Assembly (NCBI GenBank): GCA_041567895.1
Contig: JBFGAX010000001.1
Location: 1,578 to 65,577, forward strand
DNA length: 64,000 bases
From: Acidimicrobiia bacterium
GTDB taxonomy: Bacteria; Actinomycetota; Acidimicrobiia; Spongiisociales; SHLN01
Reading direction: 5' to 3'
Positions 7,924 through 21,480 of the stretch are shown piece by piece. The first letter of the stretch is position 1. Each line of letters begins with the position of its first letter. The notes below the pieces were generated by a model. It was not told the DNA's origin and searched no databases. It saw only the letters and a program-made list of their open reading frames with translations. The position numbers and the translations under genes are program-made.

Positions 7924-8002
7924 ACGTGTCCTCCTCGCGCACAACCTACCAGTGTGGTAGCAGCAGCTCAATGATCGACAAACGAAAAGCTATGGTGCCG
8001 AC

Positions 8003-9472
8003 ATGGAGAGAATCGGCATCGTAGGCGCCGGCACCATGGGCGGCGGGATCGGCCAGGTCGCAGCCACGCACGGTCACCACGTCATGTTGTACGACCATCA
8101 AATCGGCGCGGCGGAGGCAACGATCCAGAAGATTATCGAGCGCTTGGATCGATGGACGCTCTCGGGCCGGGTTGACAAAGGTGAGGTGACCGACATCATC
8201 GGCCGGCTCCGCTTTGCCACCTCGCTCGAGGATGTGGCGGCGTCGGAAGTGGTATTCGAGGCCGTCAGTGAGGATCTTGCGGTGAAACAGAAGCTGTTTG
8301 CGGCGCTGGAAGACATTGTCGGCAATAACACGATCCTCGCCTCAAACACGTCTTCGTTGTCGATAACCGACATCGCAACGGGCCTCCGCCGTCCGGAGCG
8401 GTTTGTGGGAATGCATTTCTTCAACCCGGCGCCGATCATGGAGCTCGTTGAGATCGTTTCAGGCGACCGCACGAGCCCCGAAGTGGCTAACCGTTGCTTT
8501 GACCTTGCACGAGGTTGGGACAAGAGCCCAATCATGTGTCGATCACATCCCGGTTTCGTAGGCAACTTCGTCAACCGCCCGTTCTATCTCGAAGCGCTGC
8601 GAATCCGCGAGGAGGGGGTGGCGGACGAACGAACCATCGACAAGCTCATGGTAGAGGCAGCCGCTTTTCGAATGGGTCCGTTCGAGCTCATGGATCTGGT
8701 AGGCGTGGATGTGAATCTCGCGGTGAGCGAGACTATTTGGAATGCGCTCGAACGAGACCCTCGCTTCGAACCCAGCGGCATTCAGCGCACGATGGTGAAA
8801 CTAGGAAACCTCGGACGAAAGACCGGGCAAGGCTTCTATCAATACGAGTTCAGCGAGGCGCCCTCGAGCCATCGGATCGTCCCACCTGGAGAGCGGGCGA
8901 CTTCGATTCGTGTCGGGCCGACCCCGGGAGGACTGGACGAGCTCGTCCAACGTGCCCGTGAACGAGACATCGTCGTGACGACCGGTGCGGAGATTGATGG
9001 GATAGAGGTCGGAGAGGTTCGACTGCTCTTGAGCGACGGTTATACGGCCAGGGAACACACGATGGGTTCGGCAATTCCCGCTGTGCTGGTTGATTGGGCA
9101 CACGATTTGTCGACCGCGTCGACGCTCGGGATTGCCTCCGATGTGCCGCGGGCCTTGTCGGCTGCAGCAGGATTCTTGGATCAGATCGGAGTCGAAGCCA
9201 TCCACCTCAACGACTCCTCCGGGCTGGTTGTCGGAAGAATCGTCTCCTGTCTCATCAACCTGGCTGCCGAAGCGCTCGAGAAGAAGGTCGCCACCCGGGC
9301 GGACATCGACTCCGCGATGTTGCTCGGGTTCAACTACCCCGAAGGTCCGCTCTCCTGGGGGCGGCGATTGGGACCTGCGGCCGTCGACAGGATCCTTCGA
9401 CAAATGGGTGAGCACCTCGACGGCGGCCGTTACGGTCCAACCGATGCATTAGAAGCTGCTCTGGCTACGTAA
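8003..9472 (+). CDS. 3-hydroxyacyl-CoA dehydrogenase, PaaH-like (NAD-binding domain plus duplicated C-terminal domain)
   Basis: MERIGIVGAGTMGGGIGQVAA Rossmann motif. At 489 aa it is longer than the ~285 aa Hbd, consistent with PaaH/FadB2-like architecture. It is divergent from the ABC operon. Confidence 0.8.
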   Translation: MERIGIVGAGTMGGGIGQVAATHGHHVMLYDHQIGAAEATIQKIIERLDRWTLSGRVDKGEVTDIIGRLRFATSLEDVAASEVVFEAVSEDLAVKQKLFAALEDIVGNNTILASNTSSLSITDIATGLRRPERFVGMHFFNPAPIMELVEIVSGDRTSPEVANRCFDLARGWDKSPIMCRSHPGFVGNFVNRPFYLEALRIREEGVADERTIDKLMVEAAAFRMGPFELMDLVGVDVNLAVSETIWNALERDPRFEPSGIQRTMVKLGNLGRKTGQGFYQYEFSEAPSSHRIVPPGERATSIRVGPTPGGLDELVQRARERDIVVTTGAEIDGIEVGEVRLLLSDGYTAREHTMGSAIPAVLVDWAHDLSTASTLGIASDVPRALSAAAGFLDQIGVEAIHLNDSSGLVVGRIVSCLINLAAEALEKKVATRADIDSAMLLGFNYPEGPLSWGRRLGPAAVDRILRQMGEHLDGGRYGPTDALEAALAT

Positions 9473-10646
9473 GTCTGATGTAGCGGCGTTTGCCGACCTG
9501 CACCACACGGCCGACGAGCTCGGCCCGGTCAAAGTCCTCGATCGTCACCGCATCACCGCCGTCGATCCGGACTGCTCCTTGCTTGATCATCCGACGTCCT
9601 TCACCATTCGAGGTCACGAGGCCGGCGTCGCAGAGGACGCCTGGGAGCCAAACCTGATCAGTCTCCGCCATGACGAAGTTGTCAATTTCGTCCGGGAGGG
9701 CGTGGTCGACAAACACACGATCGAAGGCCGCCTCCGCCTCCGCGGCAGCCGCATCATCGTGATAGAGAGCAACGATGGTCCGGGCGAGTTGTCGTTTTGC
9801 GCGCCCGGGATGCAGCGAACCATCCTCGACACTGCCAAGCACGCTGTCGATGTCAGCGGGTTCCAGCTCGGTAGCGAGACGGAAATACTGCTCCATGGCC
9901 GTGTCCGGAACGCTCATGACCTTCCCGAACATATCGCTCGCGTTGTCGTCGACACCTATGTAGTTGCCGAGCGACTGCGACATCTTCTGAACGCCATCGG
10001 TTCCAACCAGGAGCGGAACGGTCATCGCAACCTGGGGAGGCTGTCCGTATCTTGCCTGAACCGCCCTTCCCATGAGGAGGTTCCATAGCTGATCCGACCC
10101 TCCGAGTTCTATATCTGCTTCAACGGCCACCGAGTCGTAGCCCTGCAGCAGCGGGTACATGAACTCGAGCATGGAAATAGGCTCGCTCGCTGCGGTCCTC
10201 TTCGAGAAATCATCACGCTCCATCATCTGGGCGACGGTTGTCGACGATGTCAGCTCTAGGACGTCTGCCATGTTCAACGGTTCCAACCACTCCGAGTTGT
10301 ACCGAATCTCCAGGGGTTCGGGAAGCAGTACCCGTCGAAAACCATCGAGGACGTTGGCCGCATAGCCCCGAACCTCCTCGGCACTCAGCCTCTTTCTCGT
10401 CGCGCTCTTTCCACTGGGATCGCCTACCCGTGCGGTGAAGTCGCCGACGATCAGCACAGCGATGTGGCCTTCTTCTTGGAACTGCCGCAGCTTTCGCAAC
10501 ACCACTGCCCAGCCGAGGGTGACCTGAGGAGCGGTCGGATCCATTCCGAGCTTGACGCGCAAAGGTCGATCGAGCGCCAGCTTCTCGTCGAACTCCGATT
10601 CCGGCGCAATCGTATCCACGCCGCGCAGCAATTTGTTTCTATTCAT
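9465..10646 (-). CDS. tyrS: Tyrosyl-tRNA synthetase
   Basis: KMSKS-type motif KMSQSLGN and a C-terminal S4 domain (RRMIKQGAVRIDG). Start chosen at ATG 10646 (MNRNKLLRGVD), although the track ORF begins at TTG 10688. The HIGH motif is degenerate (see finding). The 3' end overlaps the convergent dehydrogenase by 8 nt. Confidence 0.85.
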   Translation of the reverse strand: MNRNKLLRGVDTIAPESEFDEKLALDRPLRVKLGMDPTAPQVTLGWAVVLRKLRQFQEEGHIAVLIVGDFTARVGDPSGKSATRKRLSAEEVRGYAANVLDGFRRVLLPEPLEIRYNSEWLEPLNMADVLELTSSTTVAQMMERDDFSKRTAASEPISMLEFMYPLLQGYDSVAVEADIELGGSDQLWNLLMGRAVQARYGQPPQVAMTVPLLVGTDGVQKMSQSLGNYIGVDDNASDMFGKVMSVPDTAMEQYFRLATELEPADIDSVLGSVEDGSLHPGRAKRQLARTIVALYHDDAAAAEAEAAFDRVFVDHALPDEIDNFVMAETDQVWLPGVLCDAGLVTSNGEGRRMIKQGAVRIDGGDAVTIEDFDRAELVGRVVQVGKRRYIRLT

Positions 10647-10723
10647 TCGACGGGAGCTTATGGCGGGCCCCAAATGGAGAGGAGTCAATGATTGCAGGAT
10701 CCCGGCGCGATCAACGAACTACT

Positions 10724-12025
10724 TCAAGCAGCCTGTTCTTCTCGAAGAGCCGCAGGGAGATCCAGAAGAAAACTGCTGATTCCATCAGAGCCGTCGTAGA
10801 GGAGAGTCCCGCCCATCTTTTCGGTCAGCATTCGCGAGATGGGCAAGCCGAGGCCCATCGAACCGGAGATGCGCTGGCCGCCCGATACCTGCTCAAACTC
10901 CTGAAAGATGCTCTCCCTCTCGGCGGCGTCCACGCCGGGCCCGTCGTCGACAACCCACAACCGGCAGCGCTCACCGACCCGGCGGATCTTCACCTGCACA
11001 TTTGGCCCCCCGTATCGGAAAGCGTTCGTCAGGAGATTACGAATGATCTGACGAATTCGTGCCGGGTCGCCAACTGCTTTGCACGACGTGGTGTCAGAAT
11101 CAATCGAGACCCGTGCATCGGAGTCCAGTCCTTCCAGAACCTGGGCCGTCTGCGCGATGAGATCCACATCTACGTTGTTGACCTGAAGCGTGCCCGACTC
11201 TGCTTTGGCGGCTACCAGTAGATCTTCGATGAGACCGGACACATCGGTGGCCTGATGACCCACGGTCCTGAGCAGCGATCGGCGTTCGTCGAGCGACAGG
11301 TCGCTGTCGGGGTCCACGAGCGTCTCGATGAATCCCACGATGGATGTCAGCGGGGTACGAATCTCGTGCGAAACGGTTGCCATGAACGTTTCCTTCTGCT
11401 TCATCGTGAGCTCGAGTTGCTCGTGACGCCGTTCCAGTTCGTCAACGGTCCATCTCAATTCGAGGAGAGCCATCACCTGCGTCGACAACGCGCGCAGCGC
11501 TGCTTGCTGTTCGTCGGTGAGCTGGCGCGGTTCGCGATCGATCACGCACAAAGTCCCCAATGCACTGCCGCTCGTGGTGACGAGAGGCACGGCCGCGTAA
11601 AAACGGATGGATGGAGCTGAAATAACGAGCGGATTGTCTGCGAAGCGGTAATCGGAGGCCGCGTCCCGGACGATCGTCATCTCGTTCGGCTCCAGAATCG
11701 CATAGCCGCAGAACGCGTGCTCGCGGGGCAGCTCCGAAACCGGGACGCCCACCCTGGATTTGAACCATTGACGATCGCGGTCGATCAGGTTGATGAGGGC
11801 TATGGGAACGTCGCAAATCTGCGATGCCAGCAGAGTGATCGCGTCGTAGGCCTCTTCGGGCAGCGAATCCAGAATGTCGAGCGATTCGAGCTCCGCAAGA
11901 CGCGCTTCCTCATTTTCGGGAAACGGGGCACCGGCCTTTGTTTTCTCGCTCACGTTGATTTGATCGGCATCAAATGCGCCCCACTTAATGGTGTGATTAC
12001 CTCGTCGCAGAAATCCAAATGCCAC
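10724..12025 (-). CDS. Cytoplasmic sensor histidine kinase with N-terminal GAF domain
   Basis: GAF signature (PIALINLIDRDRQWFKSRVG), HisKA H-box (ATVSHEIRTPLTSI) and HATPase_c G-boxes (DDGPGV, GLGLPISR). No TM segment. No response regulator is adjacent. Confidence 0.8.
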   Translation of the reverse strand: MAFGFLRRGNHTIKWGAFDADQINVSEKTKAGAPFPENEEARLAELESLDILDSLPEEAYDAITLLASQICDVPIALINLIDRDRQWFKSRVGVPVSELPREHAFCGYAILEPNEMTIVRDAASDYRFADNPLVISAPSIRFYAAVPLVTTSGSALGTLCVIDREPRQLTDEQQAALRALSTQVMALLELRWTVDELERRHEQLELTMKQKETFMATVSHEIRTPLTSIVGFIETLVDPDSDLSLDERRSLLRTVGHQATDVSGLIEDLLVAAKAESGTLQVNNVDVDLIAQTAQVLEGLDSDARVSIDSDTTSCKAVGDPARIRQIIRNLLTNAFRYGGPNVQVKIRRVGERCRLWVVDDGPGVDAAERESIFQEFEQVSGGQRISGSMGLGLPISRMLTEKMGGTLLYDGSDGISSFLLDLPAALREEQAA

Positions 12026-12067
12026 GAATGGAGGGGCTTAGGGGGTACCTTGCGCGCAGGAGTAAGT

Positions 12068-14461
12068 ATGAAAAGAGCCTTGCTGGCCCTCGCGCTGGTC
12101 GTTTCAGCCTGCACAATTCAGCAAACCGACGACCCCGGTATCGGAGAACACGCGCTCACGACTCTCGTATTCGCGGCTGACGGCAGCGTTTTGGCCGAGT
12201 GGCACGCCGGCGAAGATCGCATCATGACCACGATCGATCAAATTCCCCAGCACATGATCGACGCGGTCGTATCTATCGAAGACGAACGATTCTGGACACA
12301 CGCGGGTGTGGACGTGCAGGCCATAATGCGGGCCGCGCGTGTCAACACGGAGGTCGGTTCCATTGTCCAGGGGGGATCGACGATCACCCAGCAGTACATC
12401 AAGAACACCCTTCTGACGAACGAGGTGACGCTCGAGCGAAAGATGGAAGAGGCGAGCCTCGCTCTCAAGCTGGAGTCGACGCTCACCAAGGAAGAAATCC
12501 TCGAGAGGTACCTCAATACCGTGTATTTCGGTTCCGGGGCCTACGGCATATCGACCGCTGCGGCGAGCTACTTTGGAAAACCGGTCTCGCAATTGACGGT
12601 TTCGGAGTCTTCGTTGCTGGCCGGCTTGATTCAGGCGCCTTCGTCGATCGACCCCAGGAACAATCCCGAAGGCGCCCTCGCTCGCCGAGAGCTGGTACTG
12701 CAAAAGATGGTTGAGCTGGACTATGTGGATTACGCAACGGCGGCCACGGCCAACGTGCAGCCTCTCGTTCTCGCCCCCCGACCCACGGACAGCCTCAGGA
12801 CCCGCTACCCCTATTTCGTCGAAGAACTCAAGAGGCGCCTGCTCGACGATGAGCGACTCGGCGCTACGCCTACCGACCGCTACAACACGCTATTCAAGGG
12901 CGGTCTTCGCATCTACACGACCATCGACCCGGCGTCTCAGGCCATGGCCGAGCAGGCCATAGCCAATGTCGTGCCAGAGGACGGTCCTGATGTGGCTCTC
13001 GTAGCCATTGAGCCGGGAACCGGAATGGTGCGCGCCATGGTGGGCGGGAGGGACTTCTATGACGAGGACGACCCGATAGCGATGTTCAATCTTGCTACCC
13101 AGGGACAGCGACAGCCGGGGTCGGCTTTCAAACCGTTTGTCCTCGCTGCGGCGCTTGAAAGTGGCGTCGAACTCGATGACATCATCGGCGGCGGACGGGA
13201 GGTTGTGATCGAGACCGATGCCAGGCCGTGGGAGGTCGAAAATTACGCAGGTCTTCGCTTTCCTGATCTACCTGTCCTGGAGGCGACAGTGTTCTCGGTC
13301 AACGTGGCGTACGCCAGGCTGGTCGACATTGTCGGTCCGGAGAAGGTCACCGAGATTGCAGGGCGTCTCGGCATCACGGGCACGTTGCTTCCCTATCACG
13401 CCCTGGCGCTGGGCGCTCAGGAGGTGTCGCCAATCGACATGGCGTCTGCATACTCAACATTTGCGGCCGGCGGTCTCCATTCGGAACCAACGTTTTTCAC
13501 TCGCATCGAGACGACGGACGGTGACGTTGTGATCGACAATGCCCCACCGGCAAAACGCGTCATCGACACCTGGATCAGCGATCAGGTGACAACGGCCCTC
13601 ACCCAGGTCGTCGAACGAGGTACCGGGGTCAGGGCCAATATCGGTCGGCCGGTCGCGGGCAAGACCGGAACGTCTCAGGATCACAAGGACGCGTGGTTCG
13701 TTGGCTACACGCCGCAGCTCTCCGCGGCGGTATGGGTCGGCTTCGCGGAATCACCTGCTCCCATGGAAGAACCCAACACACCTTTCAGCATCACCGGGGG
13801 AACGTGGCCGGCCGAGATCTGGGCCAACTTCGCCGCAGGAGTCCTGAACGGAGTTTCATACGGCAGCTTGGCTGGAGCCCAAGATCTCGACTTGATTCCG
13901 GTCGCGATCGACACCGTGACCGGCCTGCTCGCCGGACCGGCGTGTCCTCGCGAATTCGTCGTGACGGTGTATCTGCCCGCTGATGCCATCCCGACCGAAA
14001 CATGTACGCTCCAGACCCTTCAATCGTCCGGCTCGAACCTCCGACCTGGATTCGTACCTGCGGTTGTCGGCAAGCCGATCACCGACGGAGTAGCCGATCT
14101 CAATGCGTTGGGTTACGACGTCAAGGTCACCTGGGTTGACGGTGAAATCAGCGGCACCATCTCCGAACAGGATCCACCGGCTGAAACCGAGCTTCTCTAC
14201 GGTTCTACCGTTGGGATTTCGGTTGTCGGCCCGGAACCAGGTGCCGAAATGCCGGACGTTTTGGCCTTTACCAGCGAAGCGGCGGTCGCGGAACTCACCG
14301 TGCGCGGTATTCCCGTTCGGATCATCGAAGAGACGGAAGACAACCCGTCAGACGCCAAACGGCGCGCGGGCCGGGTCTGGAGTCAAACTCCGGCAGCAGG
14401 ATCGGTGCCGCAGGAAACGGCGGTGATCTGGGTAAATCCGACCACCGATGGTGGCGACTAG
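12068..14461 (+). CDS. Class A penicillin-binding protein (GT51 transglycosylase + transpeptidase) with two C-terminal PASTA domains; predicted lipoprotein
   Basis: True start ATG 12068 (SD GGAG 6 nt upstream) gives MKRALLALALVVSAC with lipobox VSAC. GT51 motifs IEDERFWTHAGVD and GGSTITQQ are present. Transpeptidase motifs SAFK, SVN and KTGT are present, followed by two PASTA-like repeats at the C-terminus. Confidence 0.85.
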   Translation: MKRALLALALVVSACTIQQTDDPGIGEHALTTLVFAADGSVLAEWHAGEDRIMTTIDQIPQHMIDAVVSIEDERFWTHAGVDVQAIMRAARVNTEVGSIVQGGSTITQQYIKNTLLTNEVTLERKMEEASLALKLESTLTKEEILERYLNTVYFGSGAYGISTAAASYFGKPVSQLTVSESSLLAGLIQAPSSIDPRNNPEGALARRELVLQKMVELDYVDYATAATANVQPLVLAPRPTDSLRTRYPYFVEELKRRLLDDERLGATPTDRYNTLFKGGLRIYTTIDPASQAMAEQAIANVVPEDGPDVALVAIEPGTGMVRAMVGGRDFYDEDDPIAMFNLATQGQRQPGSAFKPFVLAAALESGVELDDIIGGGREVVIETDARPWEVENYAGLRFPDLPVLEATVFSVNVAYARLVDIVGPEKVTEIAGRLGITGTLLPYHALALGAQEVSPIDMASAYSTFAAGGLHSEPTFFTRIETTDGDVVIDNAPPAKRVIDTWISDQVTTALTQVVERGTGVRANIGRPVAGKTGTSQDHKDAWFVGYTPQLSAAVWVGFAESPAPMEEPNTPFSITGGTWPAEIWANFAAGVLNGVSYGSLAGAQDLDLIPVAIDTVTGLLAGPACPREFVVTVYLPADAIPTETCTLQTLQSSGSNLRPGFVPAVVGKPITDGVADLNALGYDVKVTWVDGEISGTISEQDPPAETELLYGSTVGISVVGPEPGAEMPDVLAFTSEAAVAELTVRGIPVRIIEETEDNPSDAKRRAGRVWSQTPAAGSVPQETAVIWVNPTTDGGD

Positions 14462-15012
14462 TTGCCCGAAGTCGCAATCTCGGCGGCCGCCACGAATCTC
14501 CACGGGTAGTCGACGGCCTTACTTATACCGATGCGGGGGGTCGTCAGGATCGGTCGATCCAGCGGACCTCCCGCAATGAGCCGTATCGGACCGGAATCGA
14601 GACCGGCGCCGTCGTGATCACCGGTGATTCCGAGTGCCTGTGATAGCTTTCCCGGCCCGTCTACCAAATTGTCGGATCGACCGCGCCGTTGCTTGATGAT
14701 GTCGACGCCCTCGGCGATCTCTCCTCCACGGATCAGGACGGCCGAAGGTTGCCCCGGTGGGTTCAGGACGATGTTCGAACACCAGTGCATCCCATAGGAC
14801 CGATAGACGTAGAGATGACCGGGAGGACCGAACATGGGACTGTTGCGGGCCGTCCGGCCGCCGAATGCATGGCTGGCCGGATCGTCCCCTCCCGAATATG
14901 CCTCCACTTCGGTGATGACGACTTCCGTGACGCCTTCCGCAAACTCCGTGCGAAGACGAAACCCCAACAACTGCGGAGCAATCTCGTGCGGTAGCCCTAC
15001 CAGCTCGATCAT
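14458..15012 (-). CDS. mpg: DNA-3-methyladenine (methylpurine) glycosylase, AAG/Mpg family
   Basis: HAFGGRTARNSPMFGPPGHLYVY core. Start ATG at 15012 overlaps the argF stop (ATGA). Its stop overlaps the PBP stop on the opposite strand (CTAG). Confidence 0.8.
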   Translation of the reverse strand: MIELVGLPHEIAPQLLGFRLRTEFAEGVTEVVITEVEAYSGGDDPASHAFGGRTARNSPMFGPPGHLYVYRSYGMHWCSNIVLNPPGQPSAVLIRGGEIAEGVDIIKQRRGRSDNLVDGPGKLSQALGITGDHDGAGLDSGPIRLIAGGPLDRPILTTPRIGISKAVDYPWRFVAAAEIATSGN

Positions 15013-15908
15013 CGAGATTCCATGTCGCCGAGACATTCGAGAAGAATCGATTTGAATGCGTGCAGGCGATTCTCGGCTTGATCGAACACGCGAGAAGCTG
15101 AACTCTCAATGACTTCTCGTGCCACTTCCTCGTCGTCATGGGCCGGCAAACAGTGGAGGAAAATCGCTTGGGTATCCGCCAGAGACATGAGCTCGGGCGT
15201 AACCCGGTAATCGGCGAAATCCGACCTGCGATCCCCGGCGTGCTCTTCGTCTCCCATCGAGGTCCAAACGTCTGTGTAAACCACATGGGCGCCGCTGACG
15301 GCCTCCGCTGGATTACGAACGAGTTCGACCACGTCGCCGCCCGCATCGACAAACGACGGAGCAGGGTCATAGCCTTTCGGACTGGAGATGCGAATGTTCA
15401 TGCCGGTACGATGCGCCGCGTGGATCAGCGAATGAGCCACGTTGTTTCCGTCGCCCACATAGGCGAGAACCGTGCCCTCGAGCGGGCGGTGCTCGGCGAT
15501 CGTCACGACGTCGGCAACGGCCTGACACGGGTGTTCTGCATCTGAGAGGAGATTGATCACGGGCATGGCGGTGGTCTCGGCGAATTCTGTGAGGGTTGCA
15601 TGCTCGAATACCCGCATTGCGACGGCCGCCAAATACCGTTCCATGACGCGAGAGACGTCACCAGGCGCCTCGCGTGTTCCCACGCCGATCTGTTCCTGAG
15701 AAACGACCAGTGCATGACCGGCCATCTCGGCAACGCCGACGAAACTACTGAGGCGCGTGCGAAGCGAGGGCTTAGCGAAGAACAGACCGATACTGCGGCC
15801 GGCCAGCGCTGTGCTGTAGTCGTCTGGATGGGCCTTCATATCGAGCGCACGGTGCACCACCCGGTCCCATATTTCCGAGCTGAAATCGGCTGCGCTCAGA
15901 AAATGCAC
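15009..15908 (-). CDS. argF: Ornithine carbamoyltransferase
   Basis: STRTR, HPCQ and HCLP motifs; 299 aa. No other arg genes are nearby. Confidence 0.9.
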   Translation of the reverse strand: MHFLSAADFSSEIWDRVVHRALDMKAHPDDYSTALAGRSIGLFFAKPSLRTRLSSFVGVAEMAGHALVVSQEQIGVGTREAPGDVSRVMERYLAAVAMRVFEHATLTEFAETTAMPVINLLSDAEHPCQAVADVVTIAEHRPLEGTVLAYVGDGNNVAHSLIHAAHRTGMNIRISSPKGYDPAPSFVDAGGDVVELVRNPAEAVSGAHVVYTDVWTSMGDEEHAGDRRSDFADYRVTPELMSLADTQAIFLHCLPAHDDEEVAREVIESSASRVFDQAENRLHAFKSILLECLGDMESR

Positions 15909-15909
15909 G

Positions 15910-18306
15910 TCAGGTACCTCTCAGTCGCGCACCGCAGGACGACTCGACTTCATTTATGAGACGTTGACGCAGCGGTGCGGTGTCTTCATCAGAAAGGGTG
16001 GTCTCCTTTCCTCGCAGCACCACCCTTGCTGCCACGCTCTTACGACCGGATTCTGCAAGAGAACCCGCGCTGAACTCATCAAAAATCACCGCAGATTCCA
16101 ACTCTTCGACCCCTGCCTGCACGAGGGCTCTGGTAACACATCCTCCCGGTGTGTCCAGATCGAGTTCAAAGGCCAGATCGAAAATGACCGGTGGTTGTGT
16201 GCTCGGATCGACAAACTGATGGTCGCCACGGGTCGCTATGAAGGGCGCCAGGTCAATCTCGCCGACAGCGACCCTCCCTTCGATGCCGATACGTCTGGCG
16301 ATTCGGGGATGCAACTCTCCGACCTGGCCCACGGATCGGCCACCGATCACCACGTCCGCTCCTCTGCCAGGATGCAATCCTGCGCCCTCGACATTCTCGA
16401 GCTGTGCCGCGTCTTCACCGCCCAAATTGTGCGATATCAACGTACGAATGACCCCGGCCGCAAAATGTCCATCGACGGGAGCATCCGGTGAGGCGAGGCC
16501 AGAGCTCCTCGGATTGCCGACGGCGGCAAAGGCGATCCGTCGTGGCTGGTCGGGCAAGTCGGCGAATTCTGGAGAAATGTCCTGTCGGAACACGCGTCCA
16601 AGCTCATAGAAAGCAACGTTTGCCTGGCCGTAACCCTGGTTGAATGCAATGGCCCGGAGGAGGCCTGGCAGGAGGGAAGTCCTCAGGTAGCCCTCCTCTT
16701 CCCTCAATGGATTGACGATCCGAACCGCAGATCCGATCGGATCGCCGAACATGGTGATCTCTGCGGGACCGACGAACGTTGAAACCTGAGCTTCGTTGAA
16801 CCCGACGCCTTGCATCGTGGCTCGGACCCTGCGCTCTGCGTCCTGCGCCGGTGTCAGCCCACCCCCTGGTCCGACCGGAACGGTCTCCGGGAATTTCTCA
16901 TAACCGTGAAGTCTTGCGACCTCCTCGACCAGATCTGCCGCCCTGGTGAGGTCCGGCCGAAAGGTGGGGATCGTCACGACCAGAGGATCACCCGCTTCGG
17001 TTTCCAGGCCGAAGCGTTGGAGATAATCGATGATCACCTTCTCGTCGAACGGCACACCGAGGAGACGTTCCGGTTCGTTCTTTGGGAGTTCGACGGTCCA
17101 CGGGCGGACCTCGGCGGGATACACGTCGATCGCTTCGCCGACCGGCGATGCTCCCGCCCAGTCCATGAGAAGACGCGCCGCCCGGGCAACGGCCGATGGC
17201 GGCAGATTGGGGTCCACACCACGCTCGAAGCGCGCCGATGCCTCGCTCCGTAAGCCAAGCCGCTTGCTCGTATGGAGAACGGTTGGCGCATGCCATGCCG
17301 CACCTTCGATGATGAGGCGGGTTGTGCCGTCGTTGACTTCTGAGTGAGCGCCCCCCATGACGGCACCCAGCGCGCTCGGGCCGTCGTCGTCCGTCACGAG
17401 AAGATCACCTTCGGTGAGCGTGCGCTCGACACCGTCGAGTGTCGTCAGCCGCTCGCCCTCCGTGGCTCGTCTGATGGTTATTGCTTGGCCCGCAATTCGA
17501 TCCGCATCAAACGCATGGAGCGGTTGCCCGAGTTCGAGCATCACGTAATTGGTGACATCTACCGCGTTTGAGATGGGGCGCACTCCGGACAGGCGGAGCC
17601 GGTGACGTACCGAAAACGGGGACGGAGCCACCGTTACATCCGCCATCTCCTGGGCTACGAAGCGGGGACACCCGTCGGGGGTTTCGATGGTCACCCGAAC
17701 ATCGCTGCTACCAATGACTGTTCCCAGATCGTGGACCGGGTGCCGTACCGGGATTTTGTAGTACGCAGACAGCTCCCGAGCGATTCCGTGGATGCTCATC
17801 GCATCCGGACGATTCGAGGTCACATCTATGTCGTATACCACGTCCGGCAAACCGACTACCTCGGCGAAATCGTCGCCGACGTTGAAGGACTCGTCGAGGA
17901 CCAGAATGCCCTTGTGATCGTCGCCAAGACGAAGCTCCTTTTCGGAACAAATCATCCCGTTCGAGACAACTCCTCTGATCTCTCGAGCTCCGATCTCGAA
18001 TCCCCCGGGCAATACGGCACCCTCGACAGCAAGGGCAATCAGGTCGCCCTCGCCAAAATTCCAAGCTCCGCAGACGACCTCCTGCGCACCCGATGCGCGT
18101 TCGACCGTAGCGAGGCGAATGTTGTCTGCGTCAGGATGCGAGCGGATCGATTCCACCCTTCCGACTTCGACTCCCGTGAATTCGGCCTCGTAGCGATCGA
18201 TCGACTCGACTTCCAGACCGAGCATCAGCAGCACATGAGCGATCCGGTCCGGATCGGTTTCCGGAATGTCGACAAACTCGCGGAGCCAGCGGAGCGACGC
18301 TCTCAC
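15910..18306 (-). CDS. pheT: Phenylalanyl-tRNA synthetase beta subunit
   Basis: 798 aa with N-terminal tRNA-binding domain, B3/B4 and B5 domains and a C-terminal FDX-ACB-like region. Confidence 0.95.
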   Translation of the reverse strand: MRASLRWLREFVDIPETDPDRIAHVLLMLGLEVESIDRYEAEFTGVEVGRVESIRSHPDADNIRLATVERASGAQEVVCGAWNFGEGDLIALAVEGAVLPGGFEIGAREIRGVVSNGMICSEKELRLGDDHKGILVLDESFNVGDDFAEVVGLPDVVYDIDVTSNRPDAMSIHGIARELSAYYKIPVRHPVHDLGTVIGSSDVRVTIETPDGCPRFVAQEMADVTVAPSPFSVRHRLRLSGVRPISNAVDVTNYVMLELGQPLHAFDADRIAGQAITIRRATEGERLTTLDGVERTLTEGDLLVTDDDGPSALGAVMGGAHSEVNDGTTRLIIEGAAWHAPTVLHTSKRLGLRSEASARFERGVDPNLPPSAVARAARLLMDWAGASPVGEAIDVYPAEVRPWTVELPKNEPERLLGVPFDEKVIIDYLQRFGLETEAGDPLVVTIPTFRPDLTRAADLVEEVARLHGYEKFPETVPVGPGGGLTPAQDAERRVRATMQGVGFNEAQVSTFVGPAEITMFGDPIGSAVRIVNPLREEEGYLRTSLLPGLLRAIAFNQGYGQANVAFYELGRVFRQDISPEFADLPDQPRRIAFAAVGNPRSSGLASPDAPVDGHFAAGVIRTLISHNLGGEDAAQLENVEGAGLHPGRGADVVIGGRSVGQVGELHPRIARRIGIEGRVAVGEIDLAPFIATRGDHQFVDPSTQPPVIFDLAFELDLDTPGGCVTRALVQAGVEELESAVIFDEFSAGSLAESGRKSVAARVVLRGKETTLSDEDTAPLRQRLINEVESSCGARLRGT

Positions 18307-19298
18307 GGGAACTGCCTCAGAACGCGCACGTCGTTTTCGTAGAAGCGCCGGATGTCGCGGATGCCGTACTTCGTCATCGCAAGTCGTTCGACGCCCATTC
18401 CGAAAGCGAAGCCAGTGTATTTCTGTGGGTCATAGCCAACATTCATCAGGACATCCGGGTCGACCACTCCGCAACCCAGCATCTCCAACCAGGTGCCATC
18501 GAGTTTCACATGCAGCTCCGCAGACGGCTCTGTGAAAGGAAAGAAGTGAGGGTTGAACTGAACCTCGGTTCCGGGACCGAAAAACTCCTGCACGAAGTGA
18601 ATGAGCGTGCCCTTCAGATCCGAGAACGTGATGTGCTCGTCGACCACGAGTCCTTCGATCTGGTGGAACGAAGGACTGTGGGTGGCGTCCCAGGTGTCGG
18701 TGCGAAAGGTCCGGCCAGGAGCAATGATGTACACGGGCGGATCATGCGCCTCCATGTATCGGGCCTGAACCGGCGAAGTATGCACCCTCATCAAGACGTC
18801 GTCGCGCCCCTGATAATCAACATAGAGAGTGTCGCTCTCGAGCCTGCTTGGATGCCACTCCGGCGTGTTGAGCGCGTCGAAGTTGTACCAGACATTCTCG
18901 ACCTCGGGCCCATCTGCCACTACGTATCCAAGAGCCAGGAATATGTCTGTGACCTCTTCGATGACCCGCGTTATCAGGTGCCGGGTTCCGACCGTGGGAA
19001 CCCACGCGCCAATGGTGAGATCCAACCGGTCCGATGCCAGGAGATCGCGCTCTGCCGTCATTTCGAGGACTTCTCGCCGTTCAGCAACCAATGACTTGAG
19101 TCGGTTTGCGACCTCTTGAACTTTCGCGCCTACGACCGGGCGTTGTTCGGGATCGAGTTGCCCCATTCCCTTCCTGAGTTCACCCACAACGGACGCTTTT
19201 CCGAGTAATTGGGCTTCGATCGATTCGAGCTCCGCGAGGTCGGCGGCGTTACCGATGAGGGCGGGAGCGGCCTCCAAAATGGGGTCAAGTCGTTCCAT
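18303..19298 (-). CDS. pheS: Phenylalanyl-tRNA synthetase alpha subunit
   Basis: 331 aa class II catalytic core (motifs 1-3). The 4-nt overlap with pheT is typical. Confidence 0.95.
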   Translation of the reverse strand: MERLDPILEAAPALIGNAADLAELESIEAQLLGKASVVGELRKGMGQLDPEQRPVVGAKVQEVANRLKSLVAERREVLEMTAERDLLASDRLDLTIGAWVPTVGTRHLITRVIEEVTDIFLALGYVVADGPEVENVWYNFDALNTPEWHPSRLESDTLYVDYQGRDDVLMRVHTSPVQARYMEAHDPPVYIIAPGRTFRTDTWDATHSPSFHQIEGLVVDEHITFSDLKGTLIHFVQEFFGPGTEVQFNPHFFPFTEPSAELHVKLDGTWLEMLGCGVVDPDVLMNVGYDPQKYTGFAFGMGVERLAMTKYGIRDIRRFYENDVRVLRQFP

Positions 19299-19310
19299 GG
19301 GCGCAAAACC

Positions 19311-20069
19311 TTAGCGGGAGGCCGTCTTCCGCCACTCCCACATCAACATCGCTCCCGCTTGAGCAGCGTTCAACGATTCCGTCGATTCGACCATCGGTAT
19401 CGAGACGCGGCGCGACCGCTCGATCACAGTTCCTGGAAGCCCGTGCGCCTCGTTACCGACAATGATCGCCGGTGCACCGGAAATGGCCAACACAGCCGGG
19501 TTTTCGCCACCACGGGGAACAGCCGCAAACCAATCCCAGGCCTCTAGAACATCGGCGGCGTCATCGACATCAACCCGAACTACGGCGGTCCTGAAATGCC
19601 CACCTGCCGCGGCACGCATACATTTGGGAGCCCAGGGATCGGCTCCGGCTACCACCAGCACCTGCAACCCGAACGCTGCGGCGGTGCGAATGAGAGTTCC
19701 CGTGTTCCCCGGATCGGCCAGGTCCCAAAGCACCACGACTGCGCGGCCCGGTTTGAGACCGGACTCTGGAATCCGGACGACCGCCACGGGGGATTGAGGG
19801 GTCTCGGTATCAGCGACTTTGGCGAACACATCAGCCGTCACCACGAGTGGCGCGACTTCGGCTATATCAGCCAGAGCCATGCCCCGTTCGTCGCCGTCGA
19901 CCACAAACAGTCGATCGAACGCGATACCCGCCTCCAAAGCTTCCTGACATGCCACCGGTCCCTCGACGAGACAAAGGCCCTCTGGTCTATCACGCCGAAA
20001 ACGAGCAGCGGCAACGATTGTCGGGTTGGAACGTGACGAAATCGGGTCCATACGGGGCGCCGCCCGCAC
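19311..20069 (-). CDS. TrmH/SpoU-family RNA 2'-O-methyltransferase
   Basis: SPOUT motifs (VVLWDLADPGNTGTLIRTAAAFG). It occupies the conserved position between rplT and pheS. Confidence 0.8.
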   Translation of the reverse strand: MRAAPRMDPISSRSNPTIVAAARFRRDRPEGLCLVEGPVACQEALEAGIAFDRLFVVDGDERGMALADIAEVAPLVVTADVFAKVADTETPQSPVAVVRIPESGLKPGRAVVVLWDLADPGNTGTLIRTAAAFGLQVLVVAGADPWAPKCMRAAAGGHFRTAVVRVDVDDAADVLEAWDWFAAVPRGGENPAVLAISGAPAIIVGNEAHGLPGTVIERSRRVSIPMVESTESLNAAQAGAMLMWEWRKTASR

Positions 20070-20071
20070 AG

Positions 20072-20431
20072 CTACTTGTCGTTGGCCGCCATGGCAACAT
20101 CCACCAGTTGCTTGAAAGCCTCCGGCTCATGTACGGCCAGATCGGCCAGCATTTTGCGATCCACTTCAACCTCAGCAGCCTTGAGGCCGCTTATGAATTG
20201 CGAATAGGTCGAGCCGTGCTGGCGAGCTCCGGCGTTGATTCTTGCAATCCACACGCGCCGAAAGTCGCCTTTCTTGGCGCGCCGGTGTCGGAACGCGTCG
20301 TCGCCCGCGCCGATGACCTGTTCGCGAGCGGTGCGATATCGACGGCTGCGTGCACCCTGATATCCCTTGGCACTCTCGAGAACCTTGCGCCGTTTCTTCT
20401 TTGCGTGTACCGAACGTTTTACGCGTGCCAT
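20072..20431 (-). CDS. rplT: 50S ribosomal protein L20
   Basis: [24 protein letters not shown]... is the canonical L20. Confidence 0.95.
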
Positions 20432-20437
20432 GTCTCG

Positions 20438-20632
20438 CTACCTTCCCAACAGACGCTTCACTTCGGGCACATCGGCCTTTGCCACCTCGGTTTCGCCCGC
20501 CAACCGACGAAGCCTTCGACCGCTCTTGGTCATCTTGAGGTGATTCCGTCCGACCTGACGACGGCGAAGCTTGCCGGTGCCGGTTACCTTGAACCGGTCC
20601 TTGGACCCGCTATGTGTTTTTTGTTTTGGCAT
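20438..20632 (-). CDS. rpmI: 50S ribosomal protein L35
   Basis: MPKQKTHSGSKDRFKVTGTGKLRRRQ is the canonical L35. Confidence 0.95.
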   Translation of the reverse strand: MPKQKTHSGSKDRFKVTGTGKLRRRQVGRNHLKMTKSGRRLRRLAGETEVAKADVPEVKRLLGR

Positions 20633-21480
20633 TACGCCTCCTCGGTGGCAGATACCGAAGTGTGTACTTCGGCAGCCGATTCGCTCTCATCCGGTTGTGA
20701 TTCGGCTTGTTCGTCTCGTCCGTCTGGTTGTTGCTTGCTCTCTTGCACCGATGCGGCGTTTGCCGATTCCTCGGTCGGGACGCCGACCAGGTCCCCGGTC
20801 TTTTCAGTCGATTCCGGTTCTTGATCAGGATCTTCGTCCCCGATTGCGCCGGATCCTGAGTCGGATTCCTGGGCATCGGCGTCATCCCCTGCGCCGGGCG
20901 CCGACTCCGCCGGTGGCGGTTCGGCCTCAGCCGCTGCTGCCGCAGCCTCTGCCGCCTTCAACGCTTTGATCTTGGCCTTGTCCGGTATCAGGGTCATATT
21001 CATGCTGCGGCCTTCGCGACGCGGCTCTGACTCGATTTCGGATACATCAGCAAGTGCGGCGATCATCTTGTCCAATAAGGCAGCGCCCAATTCGGTGTGG
21101 GTGATCTCCCGGCCGAAAAACATGACAATGGCCTTGATCTTGTGGCCGTGCATCAAGAAGTTGCGGGCCTGGCGGATCTTTGTCTGAAAGTCGTGCTCAT
21201 CGATTTTGATGCGAAACTTGACTTCTTTGACGACCGTTTTCGTCTGCTTCTTACGTGCCTCCCGGTTACGAACCGACTGCTCGTATTTGTATTTGCCGTA
21301 GTCCATGAGCCGACACACGGGTGGATCGGCATTTGGCGAGACCTCGACGAGGTCCATCTCCAGATTCTTTGCGAGCCAGAGAGCCTCTTCGATGGATTTG
21401 ACGCCAACCTGGCTCCCATCGGGGGCCACAACCCGAACTTCTTTGGCCCGGATTCGATCGTTTACGCGTGGTTCAGCGAT
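20632..21480 (-). CDS. infC: Translation initiation factor IF-3, with non-AUG (ATC) start and long acidic C-terminal tail
   Basis: The IF3 N-domain (IAEPRVNDRIRAKEVRVVAPDGSQ) extends upstream of the track start. The frame opens 11 codons after an in-frame TAG. ATC at 21480..21478 is preceded by GAAGGAG 8 nt upstream. The C-domain is intact and is followed by a ~100 aa Ala/Glu/Asp/Ser-rich tail. Confidence 0.8.
   Translation of the reverse strand: MAEPRVNDRIRAKEVRVVAPDGSQVGVKSIEEALWLAKNLEMDLVEVSPNADPPVCRLMDYGKYKYEQSVRNREARKKQTKTVVKEVKFRIKIDEHDFQTKIRQARNFLMHGHKIKAIVMFFGREITHTELGAALLDKMIAALADVSEIESEPRREGRSMNMTLIPDKAKIKALKAAEAAAAAAEAEPPPAESAPGAGDDADAQESDSGSGAIGDEDPDQEPESTEKTGDLVGVPTEESANAASVQESKQQPDGRDEQAESQPDESESAAEVHTSVSATEEA

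Follow-up and report, generated by a model that had tools for sequence, protein, structure and literature searches.

What is left of an aminoacyl-tRNA synthetase of class I when the residues that define its class are replaced? Synthetases of this class are defined by two signatures, HIGH and KMSKS, and it was on tyrosyl-tRNA synthetase (TyrRS) that the part each plays in catalysis was first established. The question is raised by the tyrS gene in a 64,000-nucleotide (nt) stretch, referred to below as the window, of an Acidimicrobiia genome (GenBank assembly GCA_041567895.1, contig JBFGAX010000001.1), whose product reads TLGW where HIGH is expected. The initial annotation, made from the DNA letters, offered two answers, namely an enzyme with a non-canonical way of binding ATP, or a catalytically impaired paralogue in a genome with another TyrRS elsewhere. 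The first is favoured here and the second made unlikely by synteny and selection: we consider it probable, at roughly 0.8 and judging from sequence comparisons, that this is a working, and probably the only, TyrRS of its organism, with a rebuilt ATP-phosphate subsite. The identity of the gene is itself ordinary; the combination TLGW/KMSQS looks like a functional form of a textbook active site that has apparently gone undescribed, and no relevant paper came up in full-text literature searches for TLGW, HLGW or KMSQS used as motifs of a synthetase.

Altered signatures in an otherwise ordinary enzyme

The features on which the argument rests are the following.

9465..10646, minus strand: tyrS coding sequence, 393 amino acids from ATG, with an alternative upstream TTG start at 10688 (the open reading frame extends that far)
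10509..10520, minus strand: T43-L44-G45-W46 at the class I HIGH site, codons ACC CTC GGC TGG, reading 10520..10509
9972..9986, minus strand: K221-M-S-Q224-S, the KMSKS loop with its second Lys changed to Gln, placed by the alignment to PDB entry 1h3e and by homologues
10395..10397, minus strand: R84, Arg in 252/252 W-type (Trp46) and 259/259 other sequences
10533..10535, minus strand: T38 of the DPT motif, Thr in 252/252 W-type sequences

The tyrS reading frame is unbroken over its whole length, homologues 93% identical to its product are also 393 amino acids long, and the product is clearly a bacterial TyrRS of the Thermus-like ("type 2") kind. It scores 346.6 bits over residues 8-392 against TIGR00234, the class Ic tyrS equivalog (cut-off 113.8), and 230 bits against PF00579, the catalytic Rossmann-fold domain; a phmmer search of all PDB chains places Thermus thermophilus TyrRS (1h3e) first (E=1e-94), and its homologues carry the NCBI label tyrosine--tRNA ligase. 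An identity as tryptophanyl-tRNA synthetase (TrpRS), with a TIGN-type motif, was ruled out, TIGR00233 giving 27.1 bits against a cut-off of 176.75. An AlphaFold2 model built from 46 homologues (mean predicted local distance difference test score, pLDDT, 91.5) superposes on full-length Thermus TyrRS (9sfq/1h3e) with a template modelling (TM) score of 0.88 and a root-mean-square deviation of 3.0 Å, the C-terminal S4-like domain included. The S4 domain named in the initial annotation is thus recovered in the fold, while Pfam returns only a weak match to its S4-like C-terminal family (PF22421, E=8.8e-4, below the Pfam cut-off). The window protein and the TyrZ-like Thermus enzyme have the same order of Rossmann catalytic, helical and S4-like C-terminal domains and agree in the residues that bind tyrosine, in DPT, GDP, R84 and GGxDQ, and in the first lysine of KMSKS, whereas HLGH has become TLGW, KMSKS has become KMSQS, the Asp two residues ahead of the first motif is Gln, Tyr108 and Ala112 (Thermus numbering) are Val and Phe, and TRPP reads TRKR.

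The peptide around the first motif, DPTAPQVTLGWAVV, aligns gap-free in phmmer with DPTRPDLHLGHAVV of Thermus 1h3e, so that T43-L-G-W46 falls on H52-L-G-H55 and TLGW occupies the HIGH position. Together with the minus-strand codons this bears out the proposal that TLGW stands in for HIGH and that both histidines are gone, T43 and W46 lying at Thermus H52 and H55. Only the glycine remains of the conserved residues of H-x-G-H, and with the alignment free of gaps here and no other H-x-G-H anywhere in the protein, the suggestion that HIGH might lie elsewhere in it falls away. The description of the second signature as a normal KMSKS-type loop has to be corrected: the first lysine (K221) is present, the second is Q224, and the loop reads KMSQS. 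That change was overlooked in the initial annotation, as were the coupled multi-residue network and the Chloroflexota TLGW clade described below.

Neither change is confined to one genome. TLGW and KMSQS occur together in all 120 of the best database homologues (65-100% identity), which come from independent assemblies, many of them named metagenome-assembled genomes (MAGs) of Acidimicrobiia, taxa here and below being taken from the source names in database records. Among GTDB species genomes the same pair is found in Acidimicrobiia MAGs and in 16 single-cell or MAG assemblies of Candidatus (Ca.) Actinomarina/OCS155 (47% identity), and the matches from other phyla all have H[LI]GH with KMSKS. 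The motif codons vary synonymously between genomes (Thr ACC/ACT/ACG/ACA; Leu CTC/CTG/TTA/TTG; Gly GGC/GGT/GGA; Gln CAG/CAA), and the ratio of non-synonymous to synonymous substitution rates (dN/dS) in pairwise comparisons is 0.06-0.2, with 0.06 in close pairs. By these patterns, TLGW/KMSQS is held under strong purifying selection throughout a whole clade. A base-calling error, which the initial annotation had allowed for, and a decaying gene are both excluded by the uniform motifs of the 120 homologues, their synonymous codon variation and the dN/dS of 0.06. An artefact of sequencing, assembly or frame in the 12 nt of TLGW was likewise considered and rejected outright, as more than 250 independent database sequences are alike, including single-cell genomes and long contigs, and the frame is intact.

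The same evidence bears on the idea that the protein is a pseudo-synthetase, an impaired paralogue beside a canonical TyrRS, encoded elsewhere, that charges tRNA-Tyr. After all, neither of the HIGH histidines is there, nor is the second lysine of KMSKS, and motif loss is typical of synthetase-like paralogues such as HisZ, the cyclodipeptide synthases and one half of the trypanosomatid pseudo-dimer. A dead paralogue would be recognised by relaxed constraint on its substrate site and by drifting remnants of its motifs; here the replacement residues are invariant, dN/dS is about 0.06 and the tyrosine pocket is intact, and the conservation of K221, R84, T38 and the tRNA-binding C-terminal domain equals that seen in canonical enzymes. 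The tyrosine-pocket and other catalytic residues T38, D76, R84, Y164, Q168, D171 and G182-G-x-D-Q are invariant or at least 95% conserved both in the canonical group and in sequences with Trp46 and Gln224 (hereafter W/Q), and G45, N189, K221, M222 and S225 are also kept in both. We take R84 and T38 to correspond to Arg86 and Thr40 of the Bacillus stearothermophilus enzyme, and D76, Y164, Q168, D171 and G182-G-x-D-Q presumably to its D78, Y169, Q173, D176 and GGSDQ motif. On these grounds, and on those of gene order given further below, we regard an impaired paralogue as very unlikely.

Co-varying positions and the lineages that carry them

Four further sites of the window protein enter the comparison.

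10350..10352, minus strand: V99, at the canonical Tyr/Phe site, third member of a triad (W46 / aliphatic 99 / Q224) recognised by covariation
10338..10340, minus strand: F103, one helix turn past V99, Phe in 241/252 W46 sequences and mostly small or aliphatic in canonical ones
10524..10526, minus strand: Q41, two residues ahead of TLGW, Asp/Glu in canonical and HLGF enzymes
10389..10394, minus strand: K85-R86, a basic pair right after invariant R84, gained in the Acidimicrobiia W/Q clade

When 511 homologues are tallied against the window numbering (the counts are of sequences and not of independent events), Trp is found at position 46 in 252, and all but one of these (251/252) have Q224 plus Val, Ile or Leu, rarely Cys or Ser, at position 99, with V, I or L there in 249/252. 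Where position 46 is His or Phe, position 224 is Lys and position 99 nearly always Tyr or Phe; two sequences join Tyr46 to Gln224. Position 41 is acidic in 5 of the 252 W46 sequences; among the H46 and F46 sequences listed, 233 have Asp or Glu there. The labile member is position 43, where Thr stands in 231 of the 252 and His in the other 21, and where 15 of 134 H46 sequences have Thr, and HLGW with KMSQS and TLGH with KMSKS (several TyrRS lineages) both occur. W46 and Q224 are invariant across sequences that are only about 45% identical. The tally shows positions 41, 43, 46, 99, 103 and 224 as an almost perfectly co-varying, strictly conserved set in which D41, H43, H46, Y99 and K224 are replaced. 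Phe103 is already found in P0156, P0174 and P0385, canonical relatives of the Chloroflexota type, and may for that reason be a permissive change.

The sole exception to the triad, P0441 (404 amino acids, on a 3.3-kb metagenome contig from the Joint Genome Institute, JGI), combines TLGW with Tyr99 and a canonical KMSKS; over its first 60 residues it resembles the W/Q clade and over the remainder the HLGF clade. It could be a real evolutionary intermediate, a natural recombinant or a chimera produced in assembly. The loop that follows R84 has the sequence TR(K/R)RL in W/Q enzymes of Acidimicrobiia, TRPRL in those of the HLGF clade and TRP(P/Q/M)L in the canonical ones, a stepwise gain of basic residues running in parallel with the loss of His and Lys. 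Across the W/Q enzymes in general, no gain of a compensating basic residue was found at a threshold of 85%.

The alignment with other TyrRS for which the initial annotation had called does contain a TLGW clade, in Chloroflexota as well as in Acidimicrobiia. P0144, with TLGW/KMSQS, falls in a large clade in which the members that carry names are Chloroflexota/Dehalococcoidia MAGs; its best 120 matches include 88 TLGW, 19 HLGW and 4 TMGW sequences, all scored with KMSQS, two with TLGH/KMSKS, and six more with TLGW to which the pattern search gave other strings. This clade has W46, Q224, an aliphatic residue at 99, F103 and no acidic residue at 41; it is without the K85/R86 gain, and its position 80 is often Q, A or E instead of Lys or Arg. 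A third, small W/Q group (P0131, P0133 and P0207) has FlgM, MotAB and G5/3D-ksgA as neighbours, a gene context that is not actinobacterial. In neighbour-joining trees made from simple distances with the motif and network columns removed (200 bootstrap replicates), the Chloroflexota W/Q set groups with TLGH/KMSKS sequences at 100% and with the HLGH/KMSKS sequences P0156 and P0174 at 75%, and none of the 200 replicates makes the W/Q sequences as a whole monophyletic. Pairwise identities are 67% between P0144 and P0385 (TLGH/KMSKS), 46% between P0144 and the window protein, and 56% between the window protein and P0121 (HLGF/KMSKS). Trees and identities point to at least two likely origins of the W/Q state, with convergence in Acidimicrobiia and Chloroflexota.

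It is against this distribution that a less eventful history can be weighed, in which the signatures drifted in slow-growing lineages and were then locked in by epistasis, leaving a merely slower TyrRS with no new property. Most Acidimicrobiia and Dehalococcoidia are oligotrophs that grow slowly, the sequences include stepwise intermediates (HLGF/KMSKS, TLGH/KMSKS and HLGW/KMSQS), and the Chloroflexota clade has lost the basic residue at 80 as well. Drift would not, however, be expected to yield the same W/aliphatic/Q triad twice, nor to hold W46 and Q224 invariant at about 45% identity, and we find this history unlikely.

The homologues include other departures, in fused proteins. Six of 630-714 amino acids (P0214, P0223, P0183, P0191, P0197 and P0172) have, ahead of the TyrRS catalytic domain, a B3/4 domain (PF03483) at the N-terminus, which in phenylalanyl-tRNA synthetase (PheRS) serves as editing domain of the beta subunit, several of them with deviant motifs (HIGR with KMSSS or KMSTS; HLGY with KMSQS). 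We know of no described B3/4-TyrRS fusion; such a protein could be a cis-editing TyrRS. In P0250 (731 amino acids), prephenate dehydratase and an ACT domain are fused to a TyrRS with TLGH at the HIGH position, an architecture that would couple a biosynthetic and regulatory module for aromatic amino acids to the synthetase.

The tyrS locus

The genes around tyrS in the window are these.

10724..12025, minus strand: GAF-HisKA-HATPase sensor kinase, directly upstream of tyrS and on the same strand
12068..14461, plus strand: class A penicillin-binding protein (PBP1A; transglycosylase-transpeptidase-PASTA), divergent from tyrS, a conserved neighbour, start uncertain
14458..15036, minus strand: mpg (methylpurine-DNA glycosylase), in Actinomycetota the conserved neighbour upstream of tyrS
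15009..21429, minus strand: argF, pheT, pheS, SpoU-type methylase ... infC, a conserved translation/arginine cluster

On the minus strand the order is infC, SpoU-type methylase, pheS, pheT, argF, mpg, then, past the opposite-strand PBP1A gene, the GAF histidine kinase and tyrS, which confirms the syntenic tyrS locus proposed at the outset. The window gene holds the conserved actinobacterial position, infC-rpmI-rplT-pheST-arg-mpg-tyrS, which we take to be also the infC..pheST..arg..mpg-tyrS order of Mycobacterium tuberculosis (Rv1641-Rv1689). The locus marks the window tyrS as the housekeeping copy. A TLGW gene has the same neighbour order on a 1.34-Mb Acidimicrobiia contig (L040), and single-cell genomes of Ca. 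Actinomarina show infC-pheS-pheT-mpg-tyrS, with no argF. The genomes of Ca. Actinomarina are very small, among the smallest of free-living bacteria.

P0121 (GCA_009886115.1), the closest relative without Trp46 at 56% identity, has HLGF and KMSKS and lies in an argF-argR-argH-mpg-PBP1A-tyrS locus; 117 of its 120 nearest homologues are HLGF/KMSKS as well, the named ones being Acidimicrobiia or Actinomycetota MAGs. Since the HLGF form in some genomes and the TLGW form in others occupy one locus, the two are positional orthologues and not paralogues: Acidimicrobiia hold two positional-orthologue forms of tyrS, neither of which has the histidine at the fourth position of HIGH.

Gene order thus tells against the impaired-paralogue account on several counts, in that the window gene is the positional tyrS orthologue in a conserved cluster, that it is retained in the Ca. 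Actinomarina single-cell genomes, and that the HLGF and TLGW forms share one locus in different genomes. Nor does the window hold a second TyrRS, a tblastn search of the protein against all 64 kb matching tyrS alone.

Some details of the locus are lineage-specific. The GAF sensor kinase, which stands between the PBP1A gene and tyrS and ends 35-77 nt ahead of the tyrS start, is found in a 93%-identical relative (L001) and missing at the L040, L034 and Actinomarina loci; it is a lineage-specific insertion. No T-box or other leader RNA ahead of tyrS was matched in Rfam at E<=1 in positions 8000-16000, and no promoter-like site was seen upstream of the gene. In L040 a complete ribosomal RNA (rRNA) operon (16S, 23S, 5S; 11621-16594) lies directly downstream of the TLGW tyrS, where the window carries a gene for 3-hydroxyacyl-CoA dehydrogenase. 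As called by longest open reading frames on the minus strand, mpg (14458-15036) overlaps the end of argF (15009-15908) by 28 nt, an overlap also present in L001 (3805 vs 3832), which suggests either translational coupling or a later mpg start. One homologue, P0115 (600 amino acids), has PF02245 (methylpurine-DNA glycosylase) and TyrRS domains in a single gene call, and is either a true mpg-tyrS fusion or a merged call of two adjacent genes.

The window protein is 43-44% identical to Thermus 1h3e and only 23-24% to the TyrRS of M. tuberculosis (PDB 2jan). The Mycobacterium tyrS is, as we take it, at the same locus (mpg-tyrS), so that two very different types of TyrRS would occupy one conserved actinobacterial position.

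The ATP-phosphate subsite and its precedents

Active enzymes with deviant motifs are known. Bacterial TrpRS is fully active with TIGN in place of HIGH (PMC10201369); this sister class Ic enzyme shares Thr at the first signature position and a residue other than His at the fourth, but keeps KMSKS and has Asn, not Trp, at that fourth position. The second KMSKS lysine is naturally absent from yeast TyrRS, which is active with KMSAS (PMC1934993), and from human TyrRS, active with KMSSS and with the first HIGH histidine, His49, retained (PMC7613620). The eukaryotic cytoplasmic enzymes differ from the window protein in being of the archaeal/eukaryotic type with another C-terminal domain, in keeping the first HIGH His and in having neither the Gln nor the Trp. 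Closer at hand, the HLGF/KMSKS TyrRS of other Acidimicrobiia (P0121) shares the locus and already has an aromatic residue for the fourth HIGH His, while His at the first motif position, Asp41, Tyr99 and the second lysine are all kept; in its sequence this form resembles a step preceding the W/Q state. The likely history at the one Acidimicrobiia locus would run from HLGH/KMSKS through HLGF/KMSKS and HLGW/KMSQS to TLGW/KMSQS.

How the rebuilt subsite might work can be sketched by comparing the two residue sets. In the canonical ATP-phosphate subsite stand Asp41, His43 and His46, with Tyr99 behind them, and Lys224; here their places are taken by a neutral residue at 41, Thr43, Trp46, Val99 (with Phe103 a turn on) and Gln224. 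Phe is about the size of His, and HLGF would on that account be tolerated with no other change, while the larger Trp46 could be accommodated by an aliphatic residue in place of Tyr at 99. Positions 99 and 103 lie one turn apart in helix 89-103 of the AlphaFold2 model. The hydrogen bonds that His and Lys make to the ribose and phosphates may come instead from Trp46, through its indole NH, and from Gln224, through its amide, and Thr43 may hydrogen-bond the gamma-phosphate as the Thr of TrpRS TIGN does. The lost charge of Lys224 could be balanced by the loss of Asp41 and, in Acidimicrobiia, further offset by K85 and R86 in the mobile loop beside R84; the remaining stabilisation of the transition state would then come from T38, R84 and K221, and in Acidimicrobiia from K80, K85 and R86 as well. 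A bound monovalent or divalent cation might also offset the missing charge, as is reported of human TyrRS. There, a 2002 title by Austin and First reportedly has it, potassium functionally replaces the second KMSKS lysine.

Several points weigh against a working enzyme of this design. In the B. stearothermophilus enzyme His45, His48 and Lys233 are all said, in work attributed to Fersht and First, to stabilise the transition state, so that three classical catalytic residues would be absent together. Mutation of the first HIGH histidine cuts activation about 1000-fold in several class I synthetases (PMC10485003). The Chloroflexota W/Q enzymes have not gained the basic residues and are often without Lys or Arg at position 80, so that charge compensation is not general. 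The contacts proposed among W46, V99, F103 and Q224 are drawn from covariation and helix periodicity, and the tree is a simple neighbour-joining one whose deep nodes are poorly supported.

Why such a change should arise at all might be explained by insensitivity to a natural inhibitor that mimics tyrosyl-adenylate or binds the ATP site, a proposal compatible with a working enzyme. The model is a variant of isoleucyl-tRNA synthetase, IleRS2, with G/AXHH in place of HIGH, which has a normal kcat of 45 per second and up to 1000-fold resistance to mupirocin (Brkic et al. 2023, PMC10485003). Like the W/Q state, it is a natural, clade-wide HIGH change in an active housekeeping class I enzyme with co-evolved surroundings, arisen and reverted more than once; it differs in being another enzyme, in that the His is moved and not lost, in its intact KMSKS and in its demonstrated link to mupirocin. 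An altered HIGH in a fully active enzyme can therefore bring hyper-resistance (PMC10485003), the window TyrRS has an altered HIGH in an otherwise intact enzyme, natural TyrRS inhibitors exist, such as SB-219383 co-crystallised with Staphylococcus aureus TyrRS (PDB 1jii), and the recurrence of one residue set in two phyla suggests a specific selective advantage. Yet within the 64 kb the gene has neither a biosynthetic cluster nor a second, sensitive TyrRS beside it, and the trait, carried by lineages that are free-living and oligotrophic, extends class-wide, unlike resistance traits, which are mostly patchy; resistance as the driving force seems to us improbable, if worth keeping in mind. We hold more readily, though at somewhat less than even odds, the broader proposal that the W/Q set is a second, mechanistically distinct class I ATP-phosphate subsite, convergent in Acidimicrobiia and Chloroflexota, that dispenses with the three classical residues and confers a new property, be it cation dependence, nucleotide handling or inhibitor resistance.

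For annotation, the case of this TyrRS is a caution against motif-based assignment and against calling a synthetase "catalytic-null" from missing signatures. For synthetase enzymologists, the conserved, co-varying replacements are of interest as a natural experiment in the rebuilding of an active site, with HLGF/KMSKS, TLGH/KMSKS and HLGW/KMSQS as ready evolutionary intermediates for mutant-cycle analysis, and with a possible parallel to the inhibitor resistance of IleRS2. As for the organisms themselves, two large bacterial lineages, among them the abundant marine Actinomarina and the Dehalococcoidia, appear to translate their genomes with a W/Q TyrRS.

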